IMG/VR virus record: IMGVR_UViG_3300045988_072105
Coordinates: 1 to 40,702 of that record
Direction: 5' to 3' (one strand)
Length of the DNA stretch: 40,702 bases
Source of the DNA: a virus
Of the stretch, positions 363 to 40,638 are shown piece after piece (the stretch's first letter is position 1; each line of letters opens with the position of its first letter). The notes beneath the pieces are model-generated. The model did not search any database. It saw only the letters and a program-made list of their open reading frames with translations, and was not told the DNA's origin. A program made the translations under genes and the position numbers.

Positions 363-1166
363 TTATTGATTTTTATTTTCCAAGGCTTCAATTCTGGAAA
401 TCAAGCCTGTTAATTCTTCTCTAACTTTACTCAAGGTTAAAAACGGATCACTACCATTTTGAAGTTTAGTATCAATCAGAGCATCAAGGCCTAATTCAAG
501 ATGTTTATCCTTGATATTGTTAGTCATCTGCGCTTGCAATGTGGCATAAGTCGGAAACGTCTGATAGGCCATTTCTGACGTTAGATAAGGGCTCAAGTCA
601 ACCGCTGGTGCTGTCGGAGCTGGTTTATTTTCCAAGGATTGGACCGATAGGGCCAACGATTGTACTCGACTTTCTAACGGGCCAAGATCGACCGCTGTAG
701 CTTGTGGTCGTGCTTCGAGGGCTTCAATCCGTGCGACTAGTGGCCCGTCATTGTATGCTTGTACAGTTTGGCCGGCAAGATAGTTTGCGATCTCATCGCG
801 TAAGCTGACCTTGCCCAGCTCAACCATTTCGGTCGGTTGGTATTCTTCCGCGGATTGAATCACGTCAACTCGGACGCTCTGATCGCTTGGGAATACGTAC
901 CCGTCGCACTCAACCTCGACAAGATAGCTCTCGACCGGTAGTACTTTGGGAATCTTAAACAATACTTTTGAGCCTTGGACAGTCGCGCTAAACGACGCTT
1001 TGCCTTTTTTGCTCACAAAGTGAATTGTAGCTTCCCGGCCATCAAGATCAATCGGTACCCAGTTCTCATCATACATTGCAAACCCAAAAAAGGAAGCCGA
1101 GTCGCCCTGTTTGACAACCCGACCGCCCCCAAACTGCTTTAAATTTGTACAGTTTGATCGATTCAT
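363..1166 (-). CDS. Baseplate/tail-fibre-like protein (BppU-like N-domain plus coiled coil), encoded downstream of the lysis cassette. Function unknown.
   Basis: 267-aa ORF with ATG preceded by AAAGGGGTG. The N-terminal beta-rich segment (..VKQGDSASFFGF..IDLDGREATIHF..VLFKIP..) resembles the BppU-type Ig-like domain. The C-terminal two thirds are heptad-rich, with RIEALE occurring twice. Confidence 0.75.
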   Translation of the reverse strand: MNRSNCTNLKQFGGGRVVKQGDSASFFGFAMYDENWVPIDLDGREATIHFVSKKGKASFSATVQGSKVLFKIPKVLPVESYLVEVECDGYVFPSDQSVRVDVIQSAEEYQPTEMVELGKVSLRDEIANYLAGQTVQAYNDGPLVARIEALEARPQATAVDLGPLESRVQSLALSVQSLENKPAPTAPAVDLSPYLTSEMAYQTFPTYATLQAQMTNNIKDKHLELGLDALIDTKLQNGSDPFLTLSKVREELTGLISRIEALENKNQ

Positions 1167-1178
1167 TCAATCACCCCT

Positions 1179-2024
1179 TTACTCATAATAGTTGACTAGA
1201 TCGTCTTTATCCCAGCAAGATAACCAAACAGGGCCGAATTGCCCAAATTGGAATAAACGGTAGTAGTAGCCGCCGTAATATCCGCCGTCTCCAGTGTCTG
1301 TGATATTGACTTCATCGCCAGCAAATGAGAAATACATTCCAGATTTAAAGTCTTGATCTGCTCCATCTGGCAAGTTGTTGCCGTCTTTATCAACCCAGTT
1401 TACCATTGATACCGGAATACCGTTCTCGGTCCAGTCGAAGCCAACGGGCGCGAGATAGTCGCATTTGATTTGCCACATACCGTTTACATACTTGACCTCA
1501 TTCGCTTCATAATAAGCCTTATCTTGAGGTTGTACAGTTGTATTCGCTCGGTTGTTTGTCTGTGGTGCTGTGTCAGCATATCGCCAGACCTCGATATAAG
1601 CTGGTTTATTCCAACCGTAATATTCGTTCCACGGATAGGTATTGATAGCTTGTCCGGGTGCGCCTTGTGTCGAGTAGTCGCAAGAAATGAAATTGACGCT
1701 ATCAATCATCACTCCGACGTGGCCACCAGCACCGCCAGAAGTAGACATATCAGCGCCCCAGCTCATAAGGACGATATCGGCCGGTTGAGCATCCCACGCT
1801 TGGTTACGGCTCACACGATAGAAGCCGTTACGTGACAATTGTTGCCCGAGAGTTACCGTGGACGGCAAGCCGATGATCTTGATTCCAGCTTCTTTCAAAA
1901 CTTGCGACATGATACCCGAACAGTCACCCGTACCGTCTGAACCGTTACGGCTCCCGAGCATTGAATAGGTAATCAGTCCACGACGACTAATGAAGCCGTT
2001 TACAATAGATTGTTGTACACTCAT
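1179..2024 (-). CDS. Endolysin: N-terminal Amidase_5/CHAP-like cysteine peptidoglycan hydrolase plus a C-terminal aromatic-rich cell-wall-binding domain
   Basis: Contains ..YSMLGSRNGSDGTGDCSGIMSQVL.. and ..GGHVGVM.. (Cys/His hydrolase pattern). Sits directly after the holin. I chose the ATG at 2024 (RBS AGAGGAA, 6-nt spacer) over the ORF-track start at 2048, which has no RBS. Confidence 0.85.
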   Translation of the reverse strand: MSVQQSIVNGFISRRGLITYSMLGSRNGSDGTGDCSGIMSQVLKEAGIKIIGLPSTVTLGQQLSRNGFYRVSRNQAWDAQPADIVLMSWGADMSTSGGAGGHVGVMIDSVNFISCDYSTQGAPGQAINTYPWNEYYGWNKPAYIEVWRYADTAPQTNNRANTTVQPQDKAYYEANEVKYVNGMWQIKCDYLAPVGFDWTENGIPVSMVNWVDKDGNNLPDGADQDFKSGMYFSFAGDEVNITDTGDGGYYGGYYYRLFQFGQFGPVWLSCWDKDDLVNYYE

Positions 2025-2035
2025 GTTCGATTCCT

Positions 2036-2365
2036 CTATTTCTTCCATTCGTCGTTAGCTTTTTTGACTGCTGCTTCAATAAATGTATTAAGCTCTTGGT
2101 TCGTCAAGTGGATATTTTGAGACTCAAGACCCTCAATCAAGCTAGTTTTAGCGTGTTCTAACTTGTCTTTTCCGTGGATATCCAACTTATCAGCAACTTG
2201 CTCTGTAGCGTTGACAGCGTTCTTTGCCAAGATCTCGACGATCTCAATTGCTTTCTTGCCTCCTCGCATGAGTAAGTATTTTTTAATCGCTTGAACCACT
2301 ATACCAGTCAATACAACTAAAATACTCATAGCTGATGAAGTAATAATGCTTGTAATTTGATCCAT
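2036..2365 (-). CDS. Holin, LL-H family-like
   Basis: 109 aa with one N-terminal TM segment (MSILVVLTGIVVQAI), then a charged helical tail ending ..FIEAAVKKANDEWKK, typical of Holin_LLH. Lies immediately upstream of the lysin. RBS GAGGAAA. Confidence 0.8.
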   Translation of the reverse strand: MDQITSIITSSAMSILVVLTGIVVQAIKKYLLMRGGKKAIEIVEILAKNAVNATEQVADKLDIHGKDKLEHAKTSLIEGLESQNIHLTNQELNTFIEAAVKKANDEWKK

Positions 2366-16732: not shown

Positions 16733-16759
16733 AACAAAAAAAGCGGTCTATTCCCGCTT
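16733..16759 (-). terminator. Candidate intrinsic terminator after the 45-aa ORF
   Basis: Minus strand: AAGCGG-gaataga-CCGCTT followed by TTTTTT. Confidence 0.5.
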
Positions 16760-16784
16760 GTCAAGATACCGGATCACCTCCGAT

Positions 16785-16922
16785 CTATTTCGTGTGTTTC
16801 TTAATCGCTGTGGTGATTCCATTGATCAATCCGGCAATGATGGACCATCCCACCAATACCAAGATCGCAAGGCATATCAACCCGGCGGTAAACGAAACAA
16901 GATTCCAAATATTTATCATCAT
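16785..16922 (-). CDS. 45-aa single-pass membrane micro-protein (below the ORF-track size cut-off)
   Basis: My own translation: MMINIWNLVSFTAGLICLAILVLVGWSIIAGLINGITTAIKKHTK. AAAGGAG lies just upstream. Bracketed by two terminators. Confidence 0.5.
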   Translation of the reverse strand: MMINIWNLVSFTAGLICLAILVLVGWSIIAGLINGITTAIKKHTK

Positions 16923-16945
16923 TCTCCTTTCTTATTTTGAGCATG

Positions 16946-16973
16946 AAAAAAGCACCTAGATTATTCTAAGTGC
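16946..16973 (-). terminator. Strong intrinsic terminator closing the toxin/hydrolase cassette
   Basis: Minus strand: GCACTTAG-aataat-CTAGGTGC (8-bp stem including one G-U pair) followed by TTTTTT. The stem includes the TAG stop of the hydrolase gene. Confidence 0.8.
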
Positions 16974-17379
16974 TTAAGTAATGAATTGCGTTTTTGTATT
17001 TTTTAACACGCTCGTAGTCTGTATCGGTAACAGATTTCAAACGCGATAAATCTGAGTTGTGTTTCAAATCAGCAAGTTTTACAACTCTTGCTAAATTATT
17101 TGATTTCACTTTTTCAAGATATTCTTGATAACTTTGACCTTTTTTCTTTGTCAAAATCTGTACCGCTGTAACAACTTCGTTTGATAAACCCGAAACCAAT
17201 AAATCATCAACAGTTACATCGCTATCCTCAATAACATCATGCAAAAGAGCGACAGCTTTTTCTTGTTCAGTTTTGACTTGGCTGGCCACATAGAGGGGGT
17301 GCTGTATGTAATCAATACCAGCTTTATCAACTTGCCCCGCATGTGCTTTTTTAGCGATAGCTAAGGCAATATCAATCAT
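16966..17379 (-). CDS. Small alarmone hydrolase (SpoT/Mesh1-type HD domain)
   Basis: 137 aa. AHAGQVDKAGIDYIQHPLYVA, ALLHDVIEDS and VKLADLKHNSDL match the three hallmark RSH hydrolase motifs (H.GQ....G.PY..HP..VA; LLHDVIED; VKLADRLHN). Confidence 0.9.
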   Translation of the reverse strand: MIDIALAIAKKAHAGQVDKAGIDYIQHPLYVASQVKTEQEKAVALLHDVIEDSDVTVDDLLVSGLSNEVVTAVQILTKKKGQSYQEYLEKVKSNNLARVVKLADLKHNSDLSRLKSVTDTDYERVKKYKNAIHYLST

Positions 17380-17585
17380 GCTGCTACCACCCTACTAATA
17401 TAAGCAAACGCGTCCTTTTCTGAAATTTCTTCGAAATCCGTGAAGTCGTTGAAAAAGATTTTATTAAACCAGTCAATGCTATCAACCCACTTTTTTTCGA
17501 TGTCAAAAACTTGCATGACGCCATCAATCAGACGAAGCACTTGAGGATTGTTCGTCGTTGTGTGGTAATATCTAATATCTTTCAT
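17376..17585 (-). CDS. 69-aa acidic hypothetical protein (candidate cognate immunity/antitoxin)
   Basis: Its start lies 1 nt after the stop of the MuF-toxin ORF. Its stop overlaps the hydrolase start (ATGA). I recognise no family. Confidence 0.7.
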   Translation of the reverse strand: MKDIRYYHTTTNNPQVLRLIDGVMQVFDIEKKWVDSIDWFNKIFFNDFTDFEEISEKDAFAYISRVVAA

Positions 17586-17586
17586 A

Positions 17587-19131
17587 TCACTTCACCCTCT
17601 CTATATTTTTAGGAATCTCAAGCCCGTTGCTTAAATCAAGCATTTCTTTAAACAATTTCATGCGTTCTCGATTAGATGTATTCGTATCGCGATACTTCTC
17701 ATAGAGCTCGTGTAAGGGGCCGTTTTTTAACTCAAAACTTTGCCGAGTATGATATTGCATTTCAAAGTTGATTCCGTCTTTTTCAATGACTGTATTCACA
17801 CCTTTATACGGCCCGTCTATCAACCAAGTGTTTTTTACTTTTACAACTTTGTAACCCTCTGTAATAAGATCTTGTTTCATCTTCGAGTACTCTTTTTCAA
17901 AAGTATCTGGATTAAAAATAGTCGTATACCGTAAAGCGTCGTTGATTTCGTTTGCAGCTTTTGAGAAACTTATATTTTCAGTTTGGCTATCTGTTATAAT
18001 TTTACGAGTTAATGACTCTGTCGTTTTCTTTCGAAATTCAAGTCCAGCAAGTTTTTCCTTGCCGGCAATGCGTTGCATATCTCTTGTGATTTCCGGCTCT
18101 ACTTTTGAAATTTGATCAAAAAGTTTTTTACTATGGTATTCGGGCGTTCCATCCCTCATACTTAAATTATACACTTCGTTTGAATTATTTTCAACACTTC
18201 CATTCAACTCTTCTTCGTCCGGCATAATTGTTGACCGGCAATTGTAATGGAACGGGGGCATATTTACCCCTACTTGCGCGTCCTCGAGTTTATACAGTTT
18301 GTCTTCTTGCGCGATTCGCCGGCAAATTTGAGTCGTTCGATCGTCTAGCACGACCAAGATCCGATAGTATTTCAAGCCTTCGCGCTTGTATCGTTTGATC
18401 GTCGCACGATTGACGACGGCTGTCGCGTCCGTCCGGATCAATGTTTCAGCTCTGGACCGTGCCACGTTGAATTCTTTTCGAATCTCGCGGGCCATTTCTT
18501 GTGGACTATCCCCACGGATGAAGCCTTGACGGAATACCTTTTTAAGACTATCCGCGAGGCTGTCCGTATTGCCCCAAAGTTGTGCGGAATAATTCCGGCC
18601 GTTGAATGGCGTCTTGATAACTTCTTCAAACGCTGGACGGTTGATTGCGCCCGCACGGCCACTGACTGACTTACGATAGGCGTATTCTGCCACGTCATAG
18701 AGATATTTTTCGAAGCTCTTATGCAAAGCCCCGGCTAGTACACCGGCACGATAGACGGCCTCTGAATTGAGCAATTGGAGACGCACTGCCCGAGCTGACG
18801 CGTATTGTTCGTTTAACCGGCGCAAGAGCTCGGGATCTTTCTCTGCTTGCTCTCGATACCGTCGGGCATTTTCCGCATAATCGCTCAAGTCCTCGCCACG
18901 AAGGCGCTTCATTGCGTCTTGATAGCTGATCTCGTGGTCCTCCGCGAAGTGTGTATAAAAGTCAAATACCGACCTTTGAAGGCTCACGGATTGCTCACGA
19001 TAGATCTTTTCCATTTCAGCGAAGAAGTTGATATCCTTCCGATCAACGTATTCGAAAATCTCACGGGCTCGGTCTGTCCAATATCGATTATGATCCTCGA
19101 GGATTTTCAGATTCTTCAATTTGTTCGTCAT
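17587..19131 (-). CDS. Minor head protein (SPP1 gp7/Mu F family) with a C-terminal RelA/SpoT-like nucleotide pyrophosphokinase (toxSAS-like) domain
   Basis: 514 aa, RBS GGAGAGGTG. MuF core at aa ~175-305 (..LIRTDATAVVNRA.., ..MPPFHYNCRSTIMP..). C-terminal aa ~360-485 carry FRKKTTESLTRKI, INDALRYTTIF, PYKGVNTVI and FEMQYHTRQSFELKNGPLHELYEKYR, which correspond to the RSH synthetase motifs. Confidence 0.85.
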   Translation of the reverse strand: MTNKLKNLKILEDHNRYWTDRAREIFEYVDRKDINFFAEMEKIYREQSVSLQRSVFDFYTHFAEDHEISYQDAMKRLRGEDLSDYAENARRYREQAEKDPELLRRLNEQYASARAVRLQLLNSEAVYRAGVLAGALHKSFEKYLYDVAEYAYRKSVSGRAGAINRPAFEEVIKTPFNGRNYSAQLWGNTDSLADSLKKVFRQGFIRGDSPQEMAREIRKEFNVARSRAETLIRTDATAVVNRATIKRYKREGLKYYRILVVLDDRTTQICRRIAQEDKLYKLEDAQVGVNMPPFHYNCRSTIMPDEEELNGSVENNSNEVYNLSMRDGTPEYHSKKLFDQISKVEPEITRDMQRIAGKEKLAGLEFRKKTTESLTRKIITDSQTENISFSKAANEINDALRYTTIFNPDTFEKEYSKMKQDLITEGYKVVKVKNTWLIDGPYKGVNTVIEKDGINFEMQYHTRQSFELKNGPLHELYEKYRDTNTSNRERMKLFKEMLDLSNGLEIPKNIERVK

Positions 19132-20638
19132 CTGTCACCTCTCCGTTTTCTGCTTGTTTTTCGAACCGTGGCAATGCTTCGAGTTGCTCTTTTGCCTCGT
19201 CCTTCAAACGCTCGAGCTCGACTTCTGCGTCGATTCCCGTCACTTGATTCAAAATTTCAAAGATCGTTTGCTCGCTCACAATTCCGTACAAGGTGCGGAC
19301 CATTTCGACGATCTCTTTCTCGTTTTGCGGAACATTCGGACGGAATACGATCGCGGTCTCATTGATAAGCTCGTAAGCCGTGCTTTCGTTCCCTTGAATT
19401 TTCCAAATATTCACCGCAAGACGTAACCGTCGCATAAGTCCCGCTTCAAAAAGATCTTGTTGTTGCTCGCGATAGTTGTCAGCAGCCATCAACTTATATT
19501 TCATGGACTCGCCCGATTGAACGCCTCCAAAGTTGCTGTCCAACGTGTTAGGCGTGAACGTAAACCGCAAGATATCATTCACTAGACGCTCTTTGTAAGC
19601 TTCCGCTCCCTTGCTATCATATTCTTTAATGAGATAGCCCGCGTCTGGTGCTGATCCGCCCGGGTTCGGATTGTCATCCAAAATAAGTACTTGAGCGCGC
19701 TTGTATGCCATGGATACCCCAAGGCGACCGTTTGGATTGATCTGACCGTCATCGAAGAAGTCCTTCTCGTCTGCTCCCGTGTACGGGTTGCCTTTAATCA
19801 ACAAAATCGCGTCGTTGCTATTTTGTTGAAAGTTTGCAAGCTCTGACTGTGACAAGTCATAAGCGTCTATATTGTCCAATACTGACTCATACGATCCGAG
19901 GCGTTCTTCATTGTTGCTGTACTCATTGACTGGTACACCGTGGAAGAAATGCTCTTGCTCGTCTTTGAGCTTCATCCCGTCGCTCTTCTGTGAGCTCCAC
20001 TCGTAAGTATAGACGCGATCGGCTGTATATACCTTGATGATCGTCTTACGTTTTGCGTCTCCATAATCAACGTCGTAATAGTTGATCGCCATCAACGAAT
20101 TCTGCTCGTAAGTGTCGTCATAGATGACGAACGTTTGCTCGGGGCTCAACTTGTACAACTTGACCCAAGCGACACGATCGCGCTCTGTTACGGTCAAAAG
20201 CTCATAGGCCCGGCCATAGACGCAAAGATCCTTCTTAATCGACGAGTTGTGCTTCTTCTCGTTGTTCTTCGCGGAGAATACCTTGATATTCTCAAGCATC
20301 ATGTCGTCTTCATTTTTGTACTCGACCGGATTCCCGAGCATGTAACCTTGTTCGAACATGGTGATATACTTTGCAAAATCGCTCGAGATACGGTTGTCTG
20401 CTGCTGTCGAGTCTTCCTTGTCTGGTCGATACTTGATATTATTGTCGCCCTTGTAATAGCGCTTGAGCTCTTGCAAGCGTGGCAATTGCTCTTTCTTGTG
20501 CCGGTTGACGTATCGCTTCAATTGATCGATCCATACGCTAGATGCATAATCGATGACAGCGAAGTCCTCGGTCATCATGAAAAAATGGTCGTTCGCATGA
20601 TCGGCGAAGCGTGTCCCTTTTAAAAAATTAGTAACCAA
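19088..20638 (-). CDS. Portal protein (SPP1 gp6-like)
   Basis: 516 aa, TTG start with GGGAGGT RBS, right after TerL. ..LKRYYKGDNNIKYR..DNRISSDFAKYITMFEQGYMLGNPV.. is typical of this portal family. Confidence 0.9.
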   Translation of the reverse strand: MVTNFLKGTRFADHANDHFFMMTEDFAVIDYASSVWIDQLKRYVNRHKKEQLPRLQELKRYYKGDNNIKYRPDKEDSTAADNRISSDFAKYITMFEQGYMLGNPVEYKNEDDMMLENIKVFSAKNNEKKHNSSIKKDLCVYGRAYELLTVTERDRVAWVKLYKLSPEQTFVIYDDTYEQNSLMAINYYDVDYGDAKRKTIIKVYTADRVYTYEWSSQKSDGMKLKDEQEHFFHGVPVNEYSNNEERLGSYESVLDNIDAYDLSQSELANFQQNSNDAILLIKGNPYTGADEKDFFDDGQINPNGRLGVSMAYKRAQVLILDDNPNPGGSAPDAGYLIKEYDSKGAEAYKERLVNDILRFTFTPNTLDSNFGGVQSGESMKYKLMAADNYREQQQDLFEAGLMRRLRLAVNIWKIQGNESTAYELINETAIVFRPNVPQNEKEIVEMVRTLYGIVSEQTIFEILNQVTGIDAEVELERLKDEAKEQLEALPRFEKQAENGEVTDDEQIEESENPRGS

Positions 20639-20640
20639 TT

Positions 20641-21918
20641 TTACCTCCCGAAATAATATGACGCGTTCTTCATTCGTTCTTGTACTGACTTACTTTGCAA
20701 GATACGATCTTGTAACGCGTACCGAATCGCGTCGATACAATGATTGTATGAATCGACGGGCTCGTTTATGTACTCATTTGTTTTCTTGTCTTTCTTCCAT
20801 GTATAATTTTCAAGCTCCTCAATCAACTTCACACAACGCTCGTCAACCACCCAGTCGTATTGAAGAAGGTATTGTATCCCTTGCATAACTGACCCCGGTC
20901 CTTTCTGTACGTCGATAACTCGAGGAATCCCCGAATTCCGGAGCTCTTGATTTGATTTCTTTTCCGCTGAATCAGCTCGGATCTGCTCCTTCGCATAACC
21001 GAGGGACTTGATAGCCTCCGCAATCTTGTCATTCGTAAGACCTTTTCTGACGTATTCCTCAACGACGTATAACTTGCGATTCTGGTCGTCTATTCTGACG
21101 TGTAAGAACGCGCTCGGGTCATTGATGAATCCATAGTCCAAACCAAAATAGGCCGGCAAATGATCCCACTCGGACGGGTTGAGAAGGCGCTTCTCGTACT
21201 TTGGAAAAACGAGCTTGTCGAGCGTCGCGAATTCTCCCAAGGCGTAGATCTTGTAATAAGCCTCGTTTCGGCTCGCTAGCTCCTCGATATTCTCTCTTGT
21301 GATATCATCAAGAAAGCGATTATCCTTATATGTTGTCTGATAGACGACTGTATTTTTTGGAGTTTTAATGAAAAACGCACTATACACCCAATTGACTTTA
21401 GACACCGGGTTAAACATTAAAAAGATCTGTCTCTTCTTGTGTTTCTTATCCCGAAGGCGAAGCGTCAATTGTGTATAGTCGTCAAGTGTGAATTCCGAGG
21501 CCTCTTCCATCACCACGTCTGAAATGCCCTTGATGGACTTGATTTTCTCCGGATTGTCTAACCCTTTAAAAATAAATTGAGCCCCGTTTGAGAGCTCGAT
21601 CCGATATGCTGAATTATTTACCTTGCACTTATCAAGCAACTTCCAAGTCTCGAGGCATTGCTTCACGTCTTCAAAGATCGAGTCGTACACCGTCGCCCCG
21701 ACTTTTCGAAGAAAAAGGACTTTCCGTGGATATTTCCAATCTTGACAAGCCTTGAATACGACCTTCTGGATCACTCCGTGGCTCTTGCCACTAGAAGCTC
21801 CGCCATAATGTACCTCTGTGAAGGTGTCATAGTCTGTCAGCTTGTCGTAGATATGCTTATTAAAGACCCGGCTTGGATAATTGAATTCGATCTTGATCCT
21901 TGGTTTAGTCGTCGTCAT
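20641..21918 (-). CDS. terL: Terminase large subunit (PBSX/Terminase_3 type)
   Basis: Walker A in ..HYGGASSGKSHGVIQK... C-terminal nuclease-type region. The ATG at 21918 is preferred over the TTG at 21930. Overlaps the terS 3' end. Confidence 0.9.
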   Translation of the reverse strand: MTTTKPRIKIEFNYPSRVFNKHIYDKLTDYDTFTEVHYGGASSGKSHGVIQKVVFKACQDWKYPRKVLFLRKVGATVYDSIFEDVKQCLETWKLLDKCKVNNSAYRIELSNGAQFIFKGLDNPEKIKSIKGISDVVMEEASEFTLDDYTQLTLRLRDKKHKKRQIFLMFNPVSKVNWVYSAFFIKTPKNTVVYQTTYKDNRFLDDITRENIEELASRNEAYYKIYALGEFATLDKLVFPKYEKRLLNPSEWDHLPAYFGLDYGFINDPSAFLHVRIDDQNRKLYVVEEYVRKGLTNDKIAEAIKSLGYAKEQIRADSAEKKSNQELRNSGIPRVIDVQKGPGSVMQGIQYLLQYDWVVDERCVKLIEELENYTWKKDKKTNEYINEPVDSYNHCIDAIRYALQDRILQSKSVQERMKNASYYFGR

Positions 21919-22336
21919 CCCACTCACCAACTTTTATTTCGATTGTCCGTTGAGTGATCTCTTGCTTGTCAACAAATAGTCCGAATCGTTTCCCGAGATC
22001 AACCGCGGCACTCCGTCGCGTTGATACGTTCGGGACGGCGTTCACAACTTTTTGATAGCCGTCCCCGTCGAGCACCAAAAGGGGCTCGGTCACTTCGCCA
22101 CGCATAACCGACGTTAAGAATTCAAGGACCTCTTGCTGATCCGCGACACGTTCTGACTTCAATTGCTCGAGTCGCTCGTCTATATAAGCCTTTACGTTAG
22201 GGTTTGTTAGGAGTTGGCTTGCACTCGCTCGAGCTGCTGCGTCCTTCTTAACGCTCGGATAAGCCTTTTTATATGCTTGTGTAGCATTTAACGAAACAAT
22301 ATATTCGTCAGCGAATTTCTGTTGTTTTTCCGTCAT
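21905..22336 (-). CDS. terS: Terminase small subunit (Terminase_2 type)
   Basis: MTEKQQKFADEYIVSLNATQAYKKAY..SASQLLTNPNVKAYI matches the family consensus. The start is uncertain: ATG at 22336 or GTG at 22351. Confidence 0.85.
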   Translation of the reverse strand: MTEKQQKFADEYIVSLNATQAYKKAYPSVKKDAAARASASQLLTNPNVKAYIDERLEQLKSERVADQQEVLEFLTSVMRGEVTEPLLVLDGDGYQKVVNAVPNVSTRRSAAVDLGKRFGLFVDKQEITQRTIEIKVGEWDDDD

Positions 22337-22463
22337 CCCATCACAACGCACCCCCTTTCATCGGTATTTTTTAGCGATAAAAAAACAACCCCGGAGTAAG
22401 AAAGGGCTGCTTTTGAATAATGGAAAGGTTTGACAAGGTAAAATGAAGGTAAAACCTTGTCTA

Positions 22464-22593
22464 AGCGGACGGGCGGAATCGAACCGCCTGAATGTTTTTT
22501 AAATACTATAAGGAGGCCACCACGAAAACTCGTTGTTTGTCGCTGGCAAAAAATTGAAAGGTAAACAATGAAAAAGTTGTCCTGTCGTCCGCT
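22464..22593 (-). ncRNA. tRNA-like element: canonical T-arm plus an 8-bp acceptor-like closing stem, but 130 nt long with no recognisable D or anticodon arms
   Basis: Minus strand: AGCGGACG...(97 nt)...GGCGG-TTCGATT-CCGCC-CGTCCGCT. The TTCGATT T-loop and 5-bp T-stem directly abut the 3' acceptor strand, as in a tRNA. Confidence 0.3.
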
Positions 22594-26978: not shown

Positions 26979-29262
26979 AGGTGTCTGTTTTTGCTATAAT
27001 TTCTTTGTTTTTCACTTCAAAATTACCATTATTTTTTATCCATCTACGGACTGTTTTTTCGCTGACAGGTTTATCCTCTGTTGAAAAATAATCGATCAGA
27101 TCATCAATTGTAACAGGACTCATTCCATCATCAAGGGCCTCGATAGCCGTTTCGATTCTTTCGGAGCGTTTTTCGGTTCGCTCTTCTTTTGATAATTTCT
27201 TATCAAAATTTTTCTTCCATGGTGAATTATTCCCGTTCGTGTCCTCCCCAAGCTGAATATCAGCAAGGACGCCCGAATCATCCAAGAAATGCACGGGATA
27301 ACTGAACCACATATTGATAGGCTTGAATTTGGCAAACTCTCGGAGCGTTCCTTCCACGCGCCACGCTGTCGAAATTTCGATCGCATGACGGGCTTGTTCG
27401 ATCTTGTCCGTCCATGGCTTCCGATCTAGGATATTCGGAATGGCTCTTTCAAAGTGTGTCCGCATGATTGCAGCACTTTGGAGATCGTCGAGCGTGACTT
27501 CCTCTTGGTAATATCCAAGGTTGCACTTTTGCAAGGCCTCTTTGTAGATATGGCATGCCGTATGATTGATACGTTGCGCGATCAATTCCTCCGTGACTTC
27601 CAATTCCATCAAGTCGATCAACGCGTCCGGATCTCGAGCGAATACGCCTGATCCACTAGCCCGATCCATTGACTTCTTGTTACCTTGTGAGCCCTTCGAG
27701 TGGTGATGGCAATAGATAACCGAGCACCCGAGCTCTGTCGCCACTTTGTCAAACTGATTCGTAAAGTGCGCCATCTGATCTGCGCTGTTTTCGTCACCCG
27801 TCAAGACTTTATAGATCGGGTCAATAATAACCGCGATATAGTTCTTTTTGAGCGATCGGCGGATCAATTTCGGAGCTAACTTGTCCATCGGTACAGTCTT
27901 ACCGCGCAAGTTCCAAATATCGATATTTTGTAAGTTGTTCGGTTGCAATCCCATGGCTTCGTACACGTCGCGGAATCTGTGAAGACATGACGCACGGTCT
28001 AGCTCAAGATTGACATATAGGACCTTGCCTTGCGTACACTTCCATTCGAGCCATTTTTGCCCCTCTGCGATTGCAATTGACATTTCGATCAAGCTGAATG
28101 ACTTCCCGGCCTTGGATGGCCCGGCGATCAGCATTTTGTGTCCTTGTCGAAGGACGCCTTGAATCAGCTCGGGCGCAAGCTCTGGAAGATTGTCCCAACT
28201 ATCCCCGAGGCCTTCGGGATCTGGAAGATCGTCGTTTAAGTCCTCGATATACTGATACCATTCTTCCCAATTTCTTTTTCCTATATTGGTATCAACAAGG
28301 AATTGTTTTTGGCCGTTTCGCTCGAATCCCGGCATACGAGACAAGCGAGACGGATTGCGGTTTTGTGTATCAACCGAGATCCCGTTCTTCTGGCATATCT
28401 TATATAAATAGTCAACGCGCTTGCGGTATTCGTCATAGCTGCCCGCGTCCACCTTCACGATAGCGTGTAAGGATTTGTTTCCACTATATACGAGGGCCAC
28501 GATAGGAAGCTCGAGTTCTTTATAGATCGCGTTTTGTTTCTCCACGCTCATACTATCCGATTCGACGAGCGCATAGCGGAATTCTGTCACGTTCTCGTTC
28601 TTCGCGCCCTTACCGTCTAACGGATTGAAGCGAATCCACGCGCCCGCTTCTTTGTGATAGTCACCGAGGACCGCTCCGATATCTCCGTTGCATTTGGAAA
28701 GTTGCTCGATCAGTTGCCCCGCGGTCCGGTCGTATGCTCCCTTCGTTGGAAGCCATTTCTCAATCTCACCCGTCTCGTCGTTGACTTTCGGATAGCTTTC
28801 CGTGACGTATCCGACGTTTTCGGATGATTCAAACAAGGCTTCGAGGTATCGGATGATCTCTTGCGTCGGATTCCAGATTGACGGCTCATGGATCTCTTTT
28901 CCCTCGATCCAATTCTTATCAATTACGCGATAGTCCCGGTCGATCGTATCATTCCAATCGAGCTCGTGAGCGCCTTCGTTATCACTCGAGTATGGATTCA
29001 CCCACCCGTGATCTTTCGCAAGTTGGACGATCGTCCCACCCGTCACAATCGAGCCCGCTTGTTCGTTGAAAGTGTCCCACTTCTTGAAACACTCAAATTT
29101 ACGGTAACGCGTGTCATTCTGCGACCAATTATCCCAATCCGAAGCAGTGTACCCTTCATGTTTTAAGGCCATCCCGACATTGATCCATTCTTGATAGGAC
29201 AAAACGGCGGGGTTGATATGGTCGAGCAGCGGCAATAGATCAAACTCTCTCTCATTATTCAT
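26977..29262 (-). CDS. Primase/helicase replication protein (PriCT-2-like N-terminus, primase-polymerase-like middle, RecA/DnaB-like AAA_25 ATPase)
   Basis: 761 aa. N-terminal ..LSYQEWINVGMALKHEGYTASDWDNWS..; Walker A ..LIAGPSKAGKSFSLIEM..; Walker B-like ..YIAVIIDPIYK... Confidence 0.85.
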   Translation of the reverse strand: MNNEREFDLLPLLDHINPAVLSYQEWINVGMALKHEGYTASDWDNWSQNDTRYRKFECFKKWDTFNEQAGSIVTGGTIVQLAKDHGWVNPYSSDNEGAHELDWNDTIDRDYRVIDKNWIEGKEIHEPSIWNPTQEIIRYLEALFESSENVGYVTESYPKVNDETGEIEKWLPTKGAYDRTAGQLIEQLSKCNGDIGAVLGDYHKEAGAWIRFNPLDGKGAKNENVTEFRYALVESDSMSVEKQNAIYKELELPIVALVYSGNKSLHAIVKVDAGSYDEYRKRVDYLYKICQKNGISVDTQNRNPSRLSRMPGFERNGQKQFLVDTNIGKRNWEEWYQYIEDLNDDLPDPEGLGDSWDNLPELAPELIQGVLRQGHKMLIAGPSKAGKSFSLIEMSIAIAEGQKWLEWKCTQGKVLYVNLELDRASCLHRFRDVYEAMGLQPNNLQNIDIWNLRGKTVPMDKLAPKLIRRSLKKNYIAVIIDPIYKVLTGDENSADQMAHFTNQFDKVATELGCSVIYCHHHSKGSQGNKKSMDRASGSGVFARDPDALIDLMELEVTEELIAQRINHTACHIYKEALQKCNLGYYQEEVTLDDLQSAAIMRTHFERAIPNILDRKPWTDKIEQARHAIEISTAWRVEGTLREFAKFKPINMWFSYPVHFLDDSGVLADIQLGEDTNGNNSPWKKNFDKKLSKEERTEKRSERIETAIEALDDGMSPVTIDDLIDYFSTEDKPVSEKTVRRWIKNNGNFEVKNKEIIAKTDT

Positions 29263-30833
29263 TCAATCCCTCCGTTCTCTCTTTCTTTCTTTGTTGCTGC
29301 AATTCCGAGGCTCAATCCCAAAAGTCCGAGGACGCTGATCGCGATCCCGAATTCTGTCCCAGTTTTTGGGAGTGTAGCCGGTGTGCTGTACGCTTCGACT
29401 GTTTCTTCGAATTCGTTTTTCGCGTGGTTTTCGCTTGATTTTTCACGCGATTTAACAATCTTCACTTCTTCGACTTTCGGATCTTCTTTTGGTTTTGGCG
29501 TTGGTGTGTTTGGCTTGTCTTCTTTAGGTTCTGGAATCTCGACAATCAGTTCCGGCTTGTAATGCACGGGCGCGTCATTTGGTACGACTCCACCTTGCCA
29601 TTCTGGCTTGTCAATCTGCGGAGCGTCAAACGGTACAGTCCCACCCTTCCACTCTGGAAGATCCACGATCGGAGCTTCATTTGGCAATTCAAAGACTGGC
29701 TTGTTTTCACCTTTAGCGTCACCACGGCCTCCGACAAGTTGAGCGCGACTGGTTGAAATAGCGCCGTCAGTTTCGGCCTTGAGCTCGACCTTATTCGTCG
29801 GATTCGTTGAATCCTTGACCGCGTTCGTGAGCTTGGTTTTGTACCAAACGTAGATCATTCGATCCAAGCGATCCATAGTAATTTCAAACCCGTGCTCGCT
29901 CTTGCTCATGGACTTAATGAGATCTAGTGCTGATCCCTTATCGACCCAAGGCGTCACGCTATCGACATAATTCACCACGAGGTAGTCATCGACGAGCTTT
30001 TGATTGTCTGACATTTCGTCGATAATCTTGACATAATTCAATACTTTTCGAGCGTAATTGATCCGGATCGTCCAGTTGATGACGGTCGGGTCGTCTTTGT
30101 CTTGAGACCCCCACTTCGAGATCAATTCATCTGATCCGATCTCTTGCTCTTTACCGATCTGTGCTGTCACGACTGTACCGTTGAAATTCACGTTGACTGG
30201 CTTTCCGGATTCCACTTTGTCCGTCCATTTGGCGTCGAGCTTGAGGCTCATTTGTTTATTCAACGGGTGATTTTTGAAATAGTCGTTGAATACGGTCGTA
30301 ACTGTCCCGGCCTTGCTGTCCGCGGTTGCTTGACCGACGACGGCATTTTCTGGATTGTGTACGTCGAAAGTGAAGCTCGTTTGAAAAGTGACTTCTTCTG
30401 GAAGCGTGAACGTTACTTTGTCACCTTCGTTGATCTCAAGGTTGTCTGGAAAATGGACGTCCTTGTATTCCACGGTGAAAGACTGGTATTTTCCGTTGCC
30501 GTTCGATTGATCGACCACGACTTCCGGGTTTTCTACTCGAATTTGATCCCCGTCCTTTTCAAAAGTTGTCGGAGCGATTCCTCGTTCGCTAGTTGCGTTT
30601 CTATCCGCTTGATCGCTCTCTCCACCTTGAGAATCTTCGCGTTCAGTTCGTACTTGTCGAGAAATAGCCCCTTCTTCTTCAATTCGAGCGTTTTCAGTTC
30701 CGACTGTAAGCGTTGTGTTATCGTTTGTGACTTCGTTATTGGATTCATCCGCATAAGCCCCCTTAATTCCAAGTGTAGCCGTCGCAATCGTCGCGACTGT
30801 AAAAAGTGTTAATTTGTTAGTTTTCATTATCAT
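29259..30833 (-). CDS. LPXTG cell-wall-anchored surface adhesin (MSCRAMM/collagen-binding-like A region)
   Basis: 524 aa. Signal peptide MIMKTNKLTLFTVATIATATLGIKGAYA. Ig-fold adhesin-like region (..VINWTIRINY..). Two PEW(K/Q)GG(T/V)VP(F/N)DAP repeats. P/K/E-rich wall spacer. LPKTG followed by a TM segment and KKER tail. Confidence 0.9.
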   Translation of the reverse strand: MIMKTNKLTLFTVATIATATLGIKGAYADESNNEVTNDNTTLTVGTENARIEEEGAISRQVRTEREDSQGGESDQADRNATSERGIAPTTFEKDGDQIRVENPEVVVDQSNGNGKYQSFTVEYKDVHFPDNLEINEGDKVTFTLPEEVTFQTSFTFDVHNPENAVVGQATADSKAGTVTTVFNDYFKNHPLNKQMSLKLDAKWTDKVESGKPVNVNFNGTVVTAQIGKEQEIGSDELISKWGSQDKDDPTVINWTIRINYARKVLNYVKIIDEMSDNQKLVDDYLVVNYVDSVTPWVDKGSALDLIKSMSKSEHGFEITMDRLDRMIYVWYKTKLTNAVKDSTNPTNKVELKAETDGAISTSRAQLVGGRGDAKGENKPVFELPNEAPIVDLPEWKGGTVPFDAPQIDKPEWQGGVVPNDAPVHYKPELIVEIPEPKEDKPNTPTPKPKEDPKVEEVKIVKSREKSSENHAKNEFEETVEAYSTPATLPKTGTEFGIAISVLGLLGLSLGIAATKKERENGGIE

Positions 30834-38070: not shown

Positions 38071-38096
38071 ATAGTAGAAAAAAGGAGATGAACATC

Positions 38097-38489
38097 ATGA
38101 GAAAATTTGAAACGGCTGATCGGTTGCAACAGTTAATGGCCGAAAAAGGTTGGAAACAAGTCGATATTATCAACCATTCGAAACAACATCAAGAAAAATT
38201 AGGCGTAAAACTCGGAAAAAGTGCATTATCACAATACGTCAACGGCGTACAAGCACCCGATCAAAAAAGGCTTGCTCTTTTAGCCTTGACTTTTAACGTG
38301 TCCGAGGCTTGGTTGATGGGCTATGACGTGCCTCGAGGCCGTGAATCGAACGCCGAAAACGAATACTCGGAAACGGATCTTCGAAAAATGGCCGAAAACG
38401 CGAAGACGTTTGACGGAAAGCCACTCAATGAAGATGATATCCAAGCAATACAAAATATTATAGAAATATATTTAAAAGGGAGATTATGA
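38097..38489 (+). CDS. CI-like/ImmR-like XRE-family repressor
   Basis: HTH_3 pattern ..DRLQQLMAEKGWKQVDIINHS..LGKSALSQYVNG... ATG at 38097 (GGAG, 9-nt spacer) preferred over 38088. No S24 peptidase domain. Confidence 0.85.
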   Translation: MRKFETADRLQQLMAEKGWKQVDIINHSKQHQEKLGVKLGKSALSQYVNGVQAPDQKRLALLALTFNVSEAWLMGYDVPRGRESNAENEYSETDLRKMAENAKTFDGKPLNEDDIQAIQNIIEIYLKGRL

Positions 38490-39510: not shown

Positions 39511-40638
39511 ATGATTAAAAAATATACGACCAAAAACGGGGAGACTCGTTACTTATTTCAAACTTATCTCGGGATCGATCCCGTGACGGGTAAAGAACGA
39601 CGGACCACGCGCCGGGGCTTCAAAACCATAAAGGAAGCCAAACAAGCGGAAAGAAATCTGCTGCTTGACGTGGAAGAAAACGGGCTTTCTTCTAGCCGAT
39701 CTGAAAAGTCTTTTAAAGAAATTGCTGATCTGTGGTTTGAAAATTATAAAACCACCGTCAAGGCTTCTACTGCTTTTAATACGAAGCAAAAACTTGATTA
39801 TATGATAGCTGAATATTTTGAAGGCATGAACATAGACAAAATAACTGTCATATTTTGTCAATCGTTGTTTATTAAATTAAGCCAAAAGTATTCTATGTAC
39901 GCAAACTATGCTTCGATTATCAATCGCATTTTGAAGTACGCTGTGATGTTAGATATTATAAAAAGCAATCCGATTGACAAAATAATCAAACCAAAAGCTA
40001 AAGAAGTAGAAAAGAAAGATAATTGCTATACCAAAGAAGAGTTAAACACTTTTCTAAAGTTAGCGAAAAAAGAGAGTGCTTTATTCCATACCCTTTTACA
40101 CACCATAGCTTATACTGGTTTACGGCGTGGTGAAGCGCTAGCCCTTAAATGGTCCGATATTGACTTTGAAGAAAAGACTTTATCAGTAAATCGCACCACC
40201 GCATACGTTGACGGAAAACAAGTTTTACAAACCCCAAAAACAAAGGCGAGCAAGCGTGTTATACCTATTGATAATTATACTATCAGCATTTTAAAGAGTT
40301 GGAAGCTAGAACAAAAAAAGCAATACTTTAAAAACGGTGTATCATTTTTACAAGGTGAAAACTTAATTTTCACCAATTCGTGCTGCACTATGTTTGTACC
40401 TAATGAATTTTCGAAAAAACTTAGAAAATTCATTAAGAAATACAATCTAAAACCTATCACCCCTCATGGCCTACGGCACACACACGCTAGCTTATTGTTT
40501 GAATCTGGTATCCAACCCAAAGAGATATCGGACCGATTAGGCCATAACAACATTCAAACAACGCTTGATTTATACACGCACATAAACGACAATCAACGGT
40601 ACAACGTGGTTGAAAAATTCGTAAATTTTATGTCGTAG
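39511..40638 (+). CDS. int: Tyrosine recombinase/integrase
   Basis: 375 aa. N-terminal SAM-like/arm-binding region. Catalytic pattern ..YTGLRRGEALAL.., ..HGLRHTHASLL.., ..LGHNNIQTTLDLYTH... Confidence 0.95.
   Translation: MIKKYTTKNGETRYLFQTYLGIDPVTGKERRTTRRGFKTIKEAKQAERNLLLDVEENGLSSSRSEKSFKEIADLWFENYKTTVKASTAFNTKQKLDYMIAEYFEGMNIDKITVIFCQSLFIKLSQKYSMYANYASIINRILKYAVMLDIIKSNPIDKIIKPKAKEVEKKDNCYTKEELNTFLKLAKKESALFHTLLHTIAYTGLRRGEALALKWSDIDFEEKTLSVNRTTAYVDGKQVLQTPKTKASKRVIPIDNYTISILKSWKLEQKKQYFKNGVSFLQGENLIFTNSCCTMFVPNEFSKKLRKFIKKYNLKPITPHGLRHTHASLLFESGIQPKEISDRLGHNNIQTTLDLYTHINDNQRYNVVEKFVNFMS

Follow-up and report, generated by a model that had tools for sequence, protein, structure and literature searches.

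A probable Apk2-IapK-Aph1 toxin module at the end of a MuF head gene in a streptococcal phage

Why would a phage head protein end in a domain that resembles an alarmone synthetase, and what would protect a cell in which it is made? The question is raised by a viral DNA of 40,702 nucleotides (nt), IMG/VR record IMGVR_UViG_3300045988_072105 (the whole of this stretch is called the window here), in which an open reading frame (ORF) of 514 amino acids (aa) occupies 17587..19131 on the minus strand. A preliminary description, made from the letters alone, took it for a MuF-type minor head protein fused to a pyrophosphokinase of the toxic small alarmone synthetase (toxSAS) kind and placed it in the MuF class of polymorphic toxins, a proposal supported by the MuF domain and the RelA/SpoT homologue (RSH) fold described below. 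We can be more specific: this gene (apk2) and the two genes that follow it (iapK and aph1) almost certainly are the published Apk2-IapK-Aph1 polymorphic-toxin module and, very probably, the locus is this module lodged in the head-morphogenesis operon of a complete temperate siphophage or prophage of streptococci of the mitis/parasanguinis group. The family is already described and has been biochemically tested since 2023; the window holds a further copy and not a new system.

A synthetase domain on a head protein

As first reported, the ORF comes right after an SPP1-type portal gene (19088..20638, minus strand; PF05133 SPP1_portal, E = 1e-102), the 3′ end of which it overlaps by 44 nt. The apk2 gene is complete, starts with ATG and has a GGAGAGG Shine-Dalgarno sequence upstream. 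Its product, a MuF-fused adenosine 3′-pyrophosphokinase toxin by our annotation, finds its closest database match in a protein that is 95% identical (P0001), and an exact-sequence look-up returned no identical copy on record. The MuF/SPP1-gp7 core covers aa 1-310 (18202..19131, minus strand): the search against the Phage_Mu_F family that had been suggested gave PF04233 at aa 196-303 (nt 18223-18546, E = 2e-15), and TIGR01641 "phageSPP1_gp7" also matched (E = 3.6e-27). Motifs of this region are located at aa 231-243 (LIRTDATAVVNRA) and aa 291-304 (MPPFHYNCRSTIMP). Homologues of the core that carry no toxin are 311-317 aa long and end where the core ends. SPP1 gp7 itself shares the core and the position after the portal gene with the window protein but, according to the literature, has no C-terminal toxin. 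The ratio of nonsynonymous to synonymous substitution rates (dN/dS) of the core is 0.03-0.04. The predicted N/S-rich linker is present at aa 305-329, and the linker together with the 5′ junction of the exchangeable segment discussed below was assigned from blastn boundaries to aa 311-330 (18142..18201, minus strand).

The remainder of the protein, aa 331-514 (17590..18141, minus strand; Apk2tox), adopts the RSH synthetase fold, in keeping with the first reading. Among PDB sequences, phmmer retrieved an exported small alarmone synthetase (8vx3, E = 4e-8), and a profile built from 23 homologues retrieved the same entry at E = 9e-30. AlphaFold run on the single sequence gave a predicted local distance difference test (pLDDT) value of 50.6, which is unusable; the 23-sequence alignment was used instead, and the resulting AlphaFold2 model of aa 331-514 had a mean pLDDT of 95.8. 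The comparison of folds that the preliminary description had called for was carried out with this model. The top Foldseek match was again 8vx3 (E = 2e-11, template modelling (TM) score 0.82-0.85, identity 20-23%), followed exclusively by RSH synthetases (RelP, RelQ/SAS1, Rel, CapRel and FaRel2), with TM about 0.4 for CapRel and FaRel2. The closest solved structure, therefore, is that of SaEAS from Streptomyces albidoflavus (8VX3; PMC12691689), which has the same motifs; a 2025 survey found the MuF cluster of such synthetases to come mostly from Streptococcus (PMC12691689).

All RSH motifs quoted at the outset are present, namely FRKKTTESLTRKI (aa 366-378), INDALRYTTIF (aa 396-406), PYKGVNTVI (aa 441-449) and FEMQYHT...YEKYR (aa 456-481), and only the spacing given for the first of them needs correction, being R-x-K-x3-S-x2-R-K and not R.K..S...K. 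The key residues are R367, K369, S373, R376 and K377, the catalytic D398, R401-Y402-T403, Y442, G444, N446, E457, Q459, Y460-H461, H474 and Y477. D398 is aligned with the catalytic D121 of SaEAS, the residue that is mutated to Ala in 8vx3.

The family to which the domain belongs is large, with 3262 clusters (50% identity) at E <= 1e-3; in many of the 150 best matches listed the toxin domain stands at the C-terminus of proteins of about 450-600 aa, and homologues occur in 128 phage records. Two further resemblances were seen in passing. XopAD/skwp type III effectors have a similar C-terminus (NCBIfam, E = 6.5e-26), and 84 unannotated Ralstonia solanacearum phage records encode a distant relative near the genome end (31.6% identity over 71%).

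Immunity genes and the predicted product

Directly 3′ of apk2 and on the same strand are two immunity genes that the preliminary description overlooked and that are decisive for the identity of the module. The first, iapK (17376..17585), encodes a 69-aa IapK-type immunity protein, putatively a direct inhibitor of the toxin (phrog_3514, E = 5e-35). It is 93% and 87% identical to the proteins in the same position in the pneumococcal prophages phiARI0462 and K13, respectively, and 40% identical to a protein of Pasteurella phage Pmp13 whose N-terminus, MEYYLVFP, is exactly the one encoded by the published IapKpmv cloning primer. The second, aph1 (16966..17379), overlaps the iapK stop codon with its start (ATGA) and encodes a predicted 137-aa HD-domain (p)ppApp hydrolase that matches Pfam HD_4 and PDB 7smg, the "(p)ppApp hydrolase" Aph1 of Bacteroides caccae (BcAph1; E = 1.3e-32). 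Specificity of Aph1 for (p)ppApp has been tied to D24, R96, D116, R119, K133 and Y134 in BcAph1 numbering (Ahmad 2023, PMC10083569). Their counterparts in an ungapped alignment are D18, K90, D110, R113, K127 and Y128, so five of the six are identical and the remaining one is a conservative change from Arg to Lys (R96 to K90); the catalytic H47-D48 pair is present as well. PADLOC defence models returned no match for any of the three cassette proteins. At L016 (2501-4432), a related locus, the gene for a 509-aa Apk2 homologue (P0014) has a 68-aa IapK-like gene after it and no aph1, in agreement with a published observation that the presence of aph genes varies.

The dN/dS values show purifying selection on each of the three genes: the overall range is 0.04-0.16, that of the toxin domain 0.10-0.16, that of the two immunity genes together 0.04-0.13 and that of iapK taken by itself 0.08-0.12. 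These values bear on the idea that the C-terminal domain is an inactive relic which does no more than lengthen the head protein structurally. In its favour one could cite that full-length B. caccae Apk2 is less toxic than the isolated domain (PMC10083569) and that sister phages work with MuF proteins devoid of a toxin. We regard it as very improbable: the catalytic residues are all intact, selection maintains toxin and immunity genes alike, and two intact antidotes make little sense beside a dead toxin.

How close is the locus to what has been characterised? Two studies report that (p)ppApp is made from ATP by the Apk2 C-terminal domains of B. caccae, Streptococcus pneumoniae SPNA45 and Mannheimia haemolytica (PMC10083569; PMC12226406), that those of S. 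pneumoniae and Mannheimia yield no pppGpp when GTP is supplied (PMC12226406), and that E. coli is poisoned by Apk2 domains, whose acceptor site is blocked by IapK and whose product is hydrolysed by Aph1 (PMC10083569; PMC12226406). Apk2 of SPNA45 (Bartoli 2023, cited in PMC12226406) is also the pneumococcal (p)ppApp maker that the preliminary description had mentioned without naming it. This protein, Apk2snu, has 506 aa, with D390 as the catalytic residue, R393-Y394-T395 as syn2, G436/N438 as syn3 and Y452-H453 as syn4 (Paulet et al. 2025 supplement, PMC12226406). In the window these positions correspond to D398, R401-Y402-T403, G444/N446 and Y460-H461, a constant offset of +8 that is kept to the C-terminus.

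The SPNA45 type was represented in our comparisons by a proxy, phage K13, chosen by means of peptides translated from published primers. All four primer-deduced Apk2snu peptides occur in the MuF proteins of the pneumococcal phages K13, IPP32 and 8140, at a constant offset of +21, and these phages therefore stand for the characterised type. The toxin of the window is 77% identical to that of K13 over 194 aa and 85% identical to that of phiARI0462 (aa 340-514); for Aph1 the values are 93% and 97%, next to those for IapK given above. Gene order is the same as in SPNA45, i.e., portal, muF-toxin, 69-aa iapK and 137-aa aph1 (Bartoli et al. 2023 JMB; Paulet et al. 2025), and the catalytic and signature residues are identical. 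The differences lie elsewhere: the N-terminal two-thirds of MuF are unrelated at the DNA level to the pneumococcal counterpart, phiARI0462 gp20 shares 44% full-length identity with the window protein, most of it in the C-terminal domain, and the phage backbone resembles Javan311 and Javan377 (from S. mitis and S. parasanguinis) and not pneumococcal phages. The Apk2/Aph1 pair of B. caccae (Ahmad et al. 2023, PMC10083569; 7SMG) is likewise a MuF-fused (p)ppApp synthetase with two-gene immunity; it comes from another phylum, its Aph1 is roughly half identical to ours on inspection of the alignment, and its R96 is Lys in the window. From the MuF polymorphic toxins of Jamet et al. (2017, PMC5576092) there is no essential difference. 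These also have a conserved MuF N-terminus, a variable C-terminal toxin (RelA-like domains being among the types listed) and a downstream immunity gene, and also lie beside the portal gene in temperate phages; what the window adds to them are exact cassette boundaries and a shared 3′ hairpin.

The preliminary description held that the sequence does not reveal the product, a view that now looks too pessimistic. We think it quite probable, arguing from characterised relatives, that (p)ppApp is the main product of Apk2tox, because the domain is 77% identical to a type that makes only (p)ppApp and has all published residues, and because the linked hydrolase carries the (p)ppApp-specific signature and the immunity protein is of the IapK type. 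Immunity of this kind is informative in that Tis1-like acceptor-site blockers go with (pp)pApp-making toxSAS, and pZFD antitoxins with tRNA-targeting ones (Dominguez-Molina 2024, PMC11782079). The same evidence speaks to another possibility, namely that Apk2tox has a different toxSAS activity, either pyrophosphorylation of the tRNA 3′-CCA end, as in CapRel, FaRel2 and PhRel2, or synthesis of (p)ppGpp, as in VpEAS and AaEAS. Apk2tox shares its fold with CapRel and FaRel2, members of the EAS/Apk clade differ in their products, and the nearest structure belongs to a promiscuous enzyme. Against this stand the gap in TM between CapRel or FaRel2 and SaEAS (about 0.4 vs 0.82-0.85), the closeness to an exclusive (p)ppApp maker, the signature of the hydrolase, and an immunity protein of the acceptor-site family and not of the pZFD type, and we consider such an activity improbable.

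By analogy with the characterised systems, Apk2tox would transfer the beta-gamma pyrophosphate of ATP to the 3′-OH of ATP or ADP, giving pppApp or ppApp plus AMP, so that the ATP/ADP pool would be drained and growth would stop. IapK would bind the toxin and occlude its acceptor-nucleotide site, and Aph1 would hydrolyse (p)ppApp back into ATP or ADP. Because the toxin is fused to a MuF/gp7-type protein, a few copies could be built into the capsid beside the portal and exit with the DNA, and the toxin would then do its work in the cell just entered. We give delivery by the virion, argued from this fusion, about an even chance.

Several points weigh against this picture. A match of the C-terminal part to Pfam RelA_SpoT (PF04607) had been set beforehand as a test, and none was found with either the whole protein (E <= 0.1) or the isolated domain (E <= 1). 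We do not count this as a refutation, because the structure and PDB searches reveal the fold; Apk2tox is an RSH-fold relative beyond the reach of that model. The promiscuous SaEAS has the same motifs as Apk2tox, so the motif signature by itself is not exclusive to (p)ppApp synthetases, and Apk2tox may have a minor guanosine activity. For IapK we found no Pfam match and no meaningful sequence relative in the PDB, and its presumed Tis1-like mode of action is taken from the literature. Likeness of the toxin domain to Tas1/Apk1 is marginal (E = 0.76, profile search). Finally, the literature treats packaging into the virion, injection and biological role as open questions for every Apk2, and with iapK and aph1 in a late operon the protection of the newly infected cell or the lysogen is left unexplained.

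Tas1/Apk1 as the nearest relative was rejected on account of that E-value. The Tas1/Apk1-Tis1 pair (a P. aeruginosa type VI effector; 6OX6) would have the same chemistry and has immunity by acceptor-site block, yet its delivery domain is of the PAAR/type VI secretion system (T6SS) kind rather than MuF, and it has no hydrolase partner.

Cassette boundaries and a promoter-like junction

Comparison with related phages delimits the segment that carries the toxin. In blastn, the metagenomic sister phages L005-L007 are 89-94% identical to the window from the portal to 18200 (codon ~311, after ...PDEEELNG), and homology resumes at 16961-16976; in toxin-less L008 the match ends at 18209 and begins anew at 16918. 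Matches to pneumococcal prophages (31 records, 87-90% identity) are confined to 16945-18114; phiARI0462 matches at 18111-16945 only, and K13 at 18113-16910 with an additional weak stretch (72%) at 16745-16510. The toxin domain, the two immunity genes and a terminator make up a cassette of 1.2 kb that can be exchanged and has passed from one MuF backbone to others unrelated to it. Relative L002 has an Apk2 cassette of 96-98.5% nucleotide identity and a MuF core of only 87%; L005 carries a different toxin, yet its MuF core is 91% identical. Judged from these alignments, divergence of the cassette is uncoupled from that of the backbone. Synonymous divergence (dS) from phiARI0462 declines along 16966-18141, from 0.71 in the toxin through 0.37 in iapK to 0.31 in aph1, a gradient that suggests further recombination inside the cassette.

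Four states can be recognised on one MuF backbone: Apk2tox with the 69-aa and 137-aa genes (the window and L002-L004); a PBECR2 nuclease domain (L005 and L006; 27.6 bits at a cut-off of 27.1) which a 94-aa gene may or may not follow; a domain weakly similar to Tox-MPTase4, accompanied by an unrelated 69-aa gene (L007); and no extension, the MuF protein then being 311-317 aa long. A terminator-like hairpin with an 11-bp stem and a T-run closes the cassette (...ATCTAGGTGCTTTTTT, 16975..16950, minus strand), recognised by terminator scan, alignment of the 3′ junctions and pattern search. It ends all three cassette types and is absent from the toxin-less form, and it recurs at L005 6521-6544, L007 6592-6619 and L001 3502-3531, and thus on two phage backbones that are unrelated; recombination during cassette exchange may be anchored there on the 3′ side. 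We also noticed that L005 (6416-6521) and L006 (6416-6863) encode an identical 471-aa MuF-PBECR2 protein (P0030), which is followed by the 94-aa gene in L006 and by just 105 bp up to the hairpin in L005; therefore, the putative PBECR2 immunity gene seems dispensable or located elsewhere.

As one more streptococcal example of a module described in 2023-2025, the window adds little by itself. Its value lies in the exact boundaries of the cassette, in natural variants at one site and in a testable hypothesis of a nested promoter. The four states (Apk2tox, PBECR2, metallopeptidase-like and none) amount to near-isogenic natural variants and bear on a question that the literature leaves open, i.e., what benefit MuF toxins bring to the phage or the lysogen.

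The hypothesis of a nested promoter stems from an element at the MuF/toxin junction. On the coding strand of the linker, 18194..18166 (minus strand) reads TTGAAA-17-TATAAT, with 11 of 12 consensus positions matched, and in a promoter scan this was the best promoter-like match of the 6.7-kb head region. The same geometry was found at each of the nine streptococcal-type cassette loci scanned (at least 10/12 in every case), always with a 17-nt spacer and with TATAAT as the -10 element, which also encodes a Tyr-Asn pair. The -35 elements are TTGAAA in the window, L002, L016 and the S. rupicaprae locus L017, TTGCGA in phiARI0462 and K13, TTGATA in Javan119 and Javan180, and TTGCAA in the unfused L018; the spacer sequences and the residues encoded over the -35 differ among lineages. 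If the lineages were independent, the chance of obtaining TT|G plus TATAAT by synonymous choice in five of them would be about 6e-6 for the residues encoded there and with the codon usage of the window, a figure that overstates the case because the lineages are related and only partly independent. In the window the ATG of M324 lies 6 nt downstream of the -10, and the same spacing is seen in several lineages; the pneumococcal and P0014 forms have no ATG after the -10. A terminator-like hairpin is found 3′ of aph1 in Javan119 and Pmp13 too.

Unfused versions exist. L018 (3001-4217), L020 (2460-3490) and L021 (3001-4225) each have a three-gene cassette for a toxin of 190-198 aa, a protein of 68-72 aa and a hydrolase of the HD_4 type. 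The first lies in a phage head module with a Phage_min_cap2-type minor capsid protein, and the other two are chromosomal, with ABC-transporter and folD genes on either side of one and a PBP1 gene next to the other. In L020 the hydrolase is shortened to 83 aa, and this chromosomal unit is preceded by an intergenic TTAAAA-17-TATAAT-N6-ATG. A different arrangement is seen in L019 (2124-3834), where a MuF core (304 aa) and an Apk2tox ORF (277 aa) are separate genes overlapping by 38 nt, which could mean that the gene is frameshifted or split, or that the assembly is wrong.

We hypothesize, tentatively and with some doubt, that the cassette is a self-contained transcription unit nested in a late structural gene, with a sigma-A-type promoter written into the linker codons and a hairpin after aph1. 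The promoter-like junction element together with the terminator-like hairpin after aph1 is apparently the only new point at the locus: the literature searched does not mention an internal promoter in MuF toxins, with Bartoli 2023 lying outside its scope. Were the hypothesis true, lysogens could make both antidotes without late-gene expression, lineages that keep the ATG (M324 here) could make a leaderless, MuF-free toxin, the module of the prophage would be a toxSAS-type toxin-antitoxin (TA) or kin-immunity system besides being possible virion cargo, and the movement of intact cassettes among MuF genes, other head modules and chromosomes would be explained. A functional promoter and terminator would account for the immunity of lysogens and would link virion-fused polymorphic toxins to free-standing toxSAS TA modules.

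From here it is a short step to a different biological role, in which the three genes work as an autonomous toxSAS-type TA unit inside the lysogen (addiction, abortive infection or kin immunity), run from their own junction promoter, and the fusion to MuF is secondary. Such a role concerns what the module is for and not its molecular identity, and it can be compatible with virion delivery. The recurrent promoter-like geometry over varying spacers and encoded residues, the hairpin after aph1, the ATG 6 nt past the -10 in several lineages and the three unfused units are all in line with it, and there is a precedent in FaRel, a toxSAS accompanied by a small alarmone hydrolase (SAH) antitoxin and a Tis1-like antitoxin (PMC11782079). 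The FaRel module of C. marina (Jimmy 2020; Dominguez-Molina 2024, PMC11782079) resembles the window in having a (pp)pApp-making toxin with one hydrolytic and one binding antidote, and the unfused cassettes look similar to it; it differs in that no virion protein is fused to it, in gene order and in that the Foldseek similarity is weak (TM to FaRel/FaRel2 0.34-0.42). More generally, the toxins of toxSAS TA modules (Jimmy 2020) stand alone, whereas that of the window is fused in frame to MuF.

Other observations pull the opposite way. Evidence for the junction promoter is confined to consensus-level matches, and TATAAT doubles as the conserved Tyr-Asn codons, on which a constraint at the peptide level is possible, even though the Apk2 construct published as active begins past this Tyr-Asn pair. 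Inside iapK there is another promoter-like site (17485..17458), which falls on an invariant peptide motif and is kept even where aph1 is lacking; it is clearly conserved for coding reasons. A junction promoter was not found in Pasteurella Pmp13, nor in the PBECR2 and MPTase4 cassettes. Adding the forms that lack the ATG, the kinship that inflates the probability and the lack of a PADLOC match, we hold the autonomous TA role to be rather unlikely as the main one.

The surrounding phage

Taken as a whole, the window represents a temperate phage or prophage in complete form. An integrase gene (39511..40638, plus strand) and a CI-like repressor gene (38088..38489, plus strand) lie toward one end and an endolysin gene (1179..2048, minus strand) toward the other; the large terminase gene (20641..21930) is upstream of the portal gene, as is that of the small terminase, and genes for primase, helicase, scaffold, capsid and tail proteins are recognisable. 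Scans of the whole window for tRNA genes and Rfam families returned nothing. Javan311 (S. mitis) and Javan377 (S. parasanguinis) come closest to the window, with 80-86% identity; this similarity is missing at ~16785-22577.

Between aph1 and the scaffold gene, a 45-aa hydrophobic ORF (MMINIWNLVSFTAGLICLAILVLVGWSIIAGLINGITTAIKKHTK; 16785-16922, minus strand) is preceded by a strong AAAGGAG ribosome-binding site. It has no Pfam match, is also present in toxin-less relatives and belongs to the backbone and not to the cassette. A second terminator-like hairpin (AAGCGGGAATAGACCGCTT plus T-run; 16741-16759, minus strand) lies upstream of the scaffold gene and is preceded by GGAGGTGATCC..ATCTTGAC (surrounding region 16745-16783); L005 and L007 have the same hairpin, and a similar sequence stands before the scaffold gene in phiARI0462 and K13.

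In the middle of the replication module, flanked by the genes for primase and helicase, 29259-30833 (minus strand) encodes a 524-aa protein that resembles surface adhesins of the MSCRAMM type: it contains Big_8 and Collagen_bind domains and matches the LPXTG anchor weakly. It has no PHROG match, and its gene is possibly one for lysogenic conversion in an unusual position. Beyond the endolysin gene, at the prophage end, a 267-aa ORF (363-1166, minus strand) matches phrog_6487 and no Pfam family, and is possibly a moron or cargo gene.

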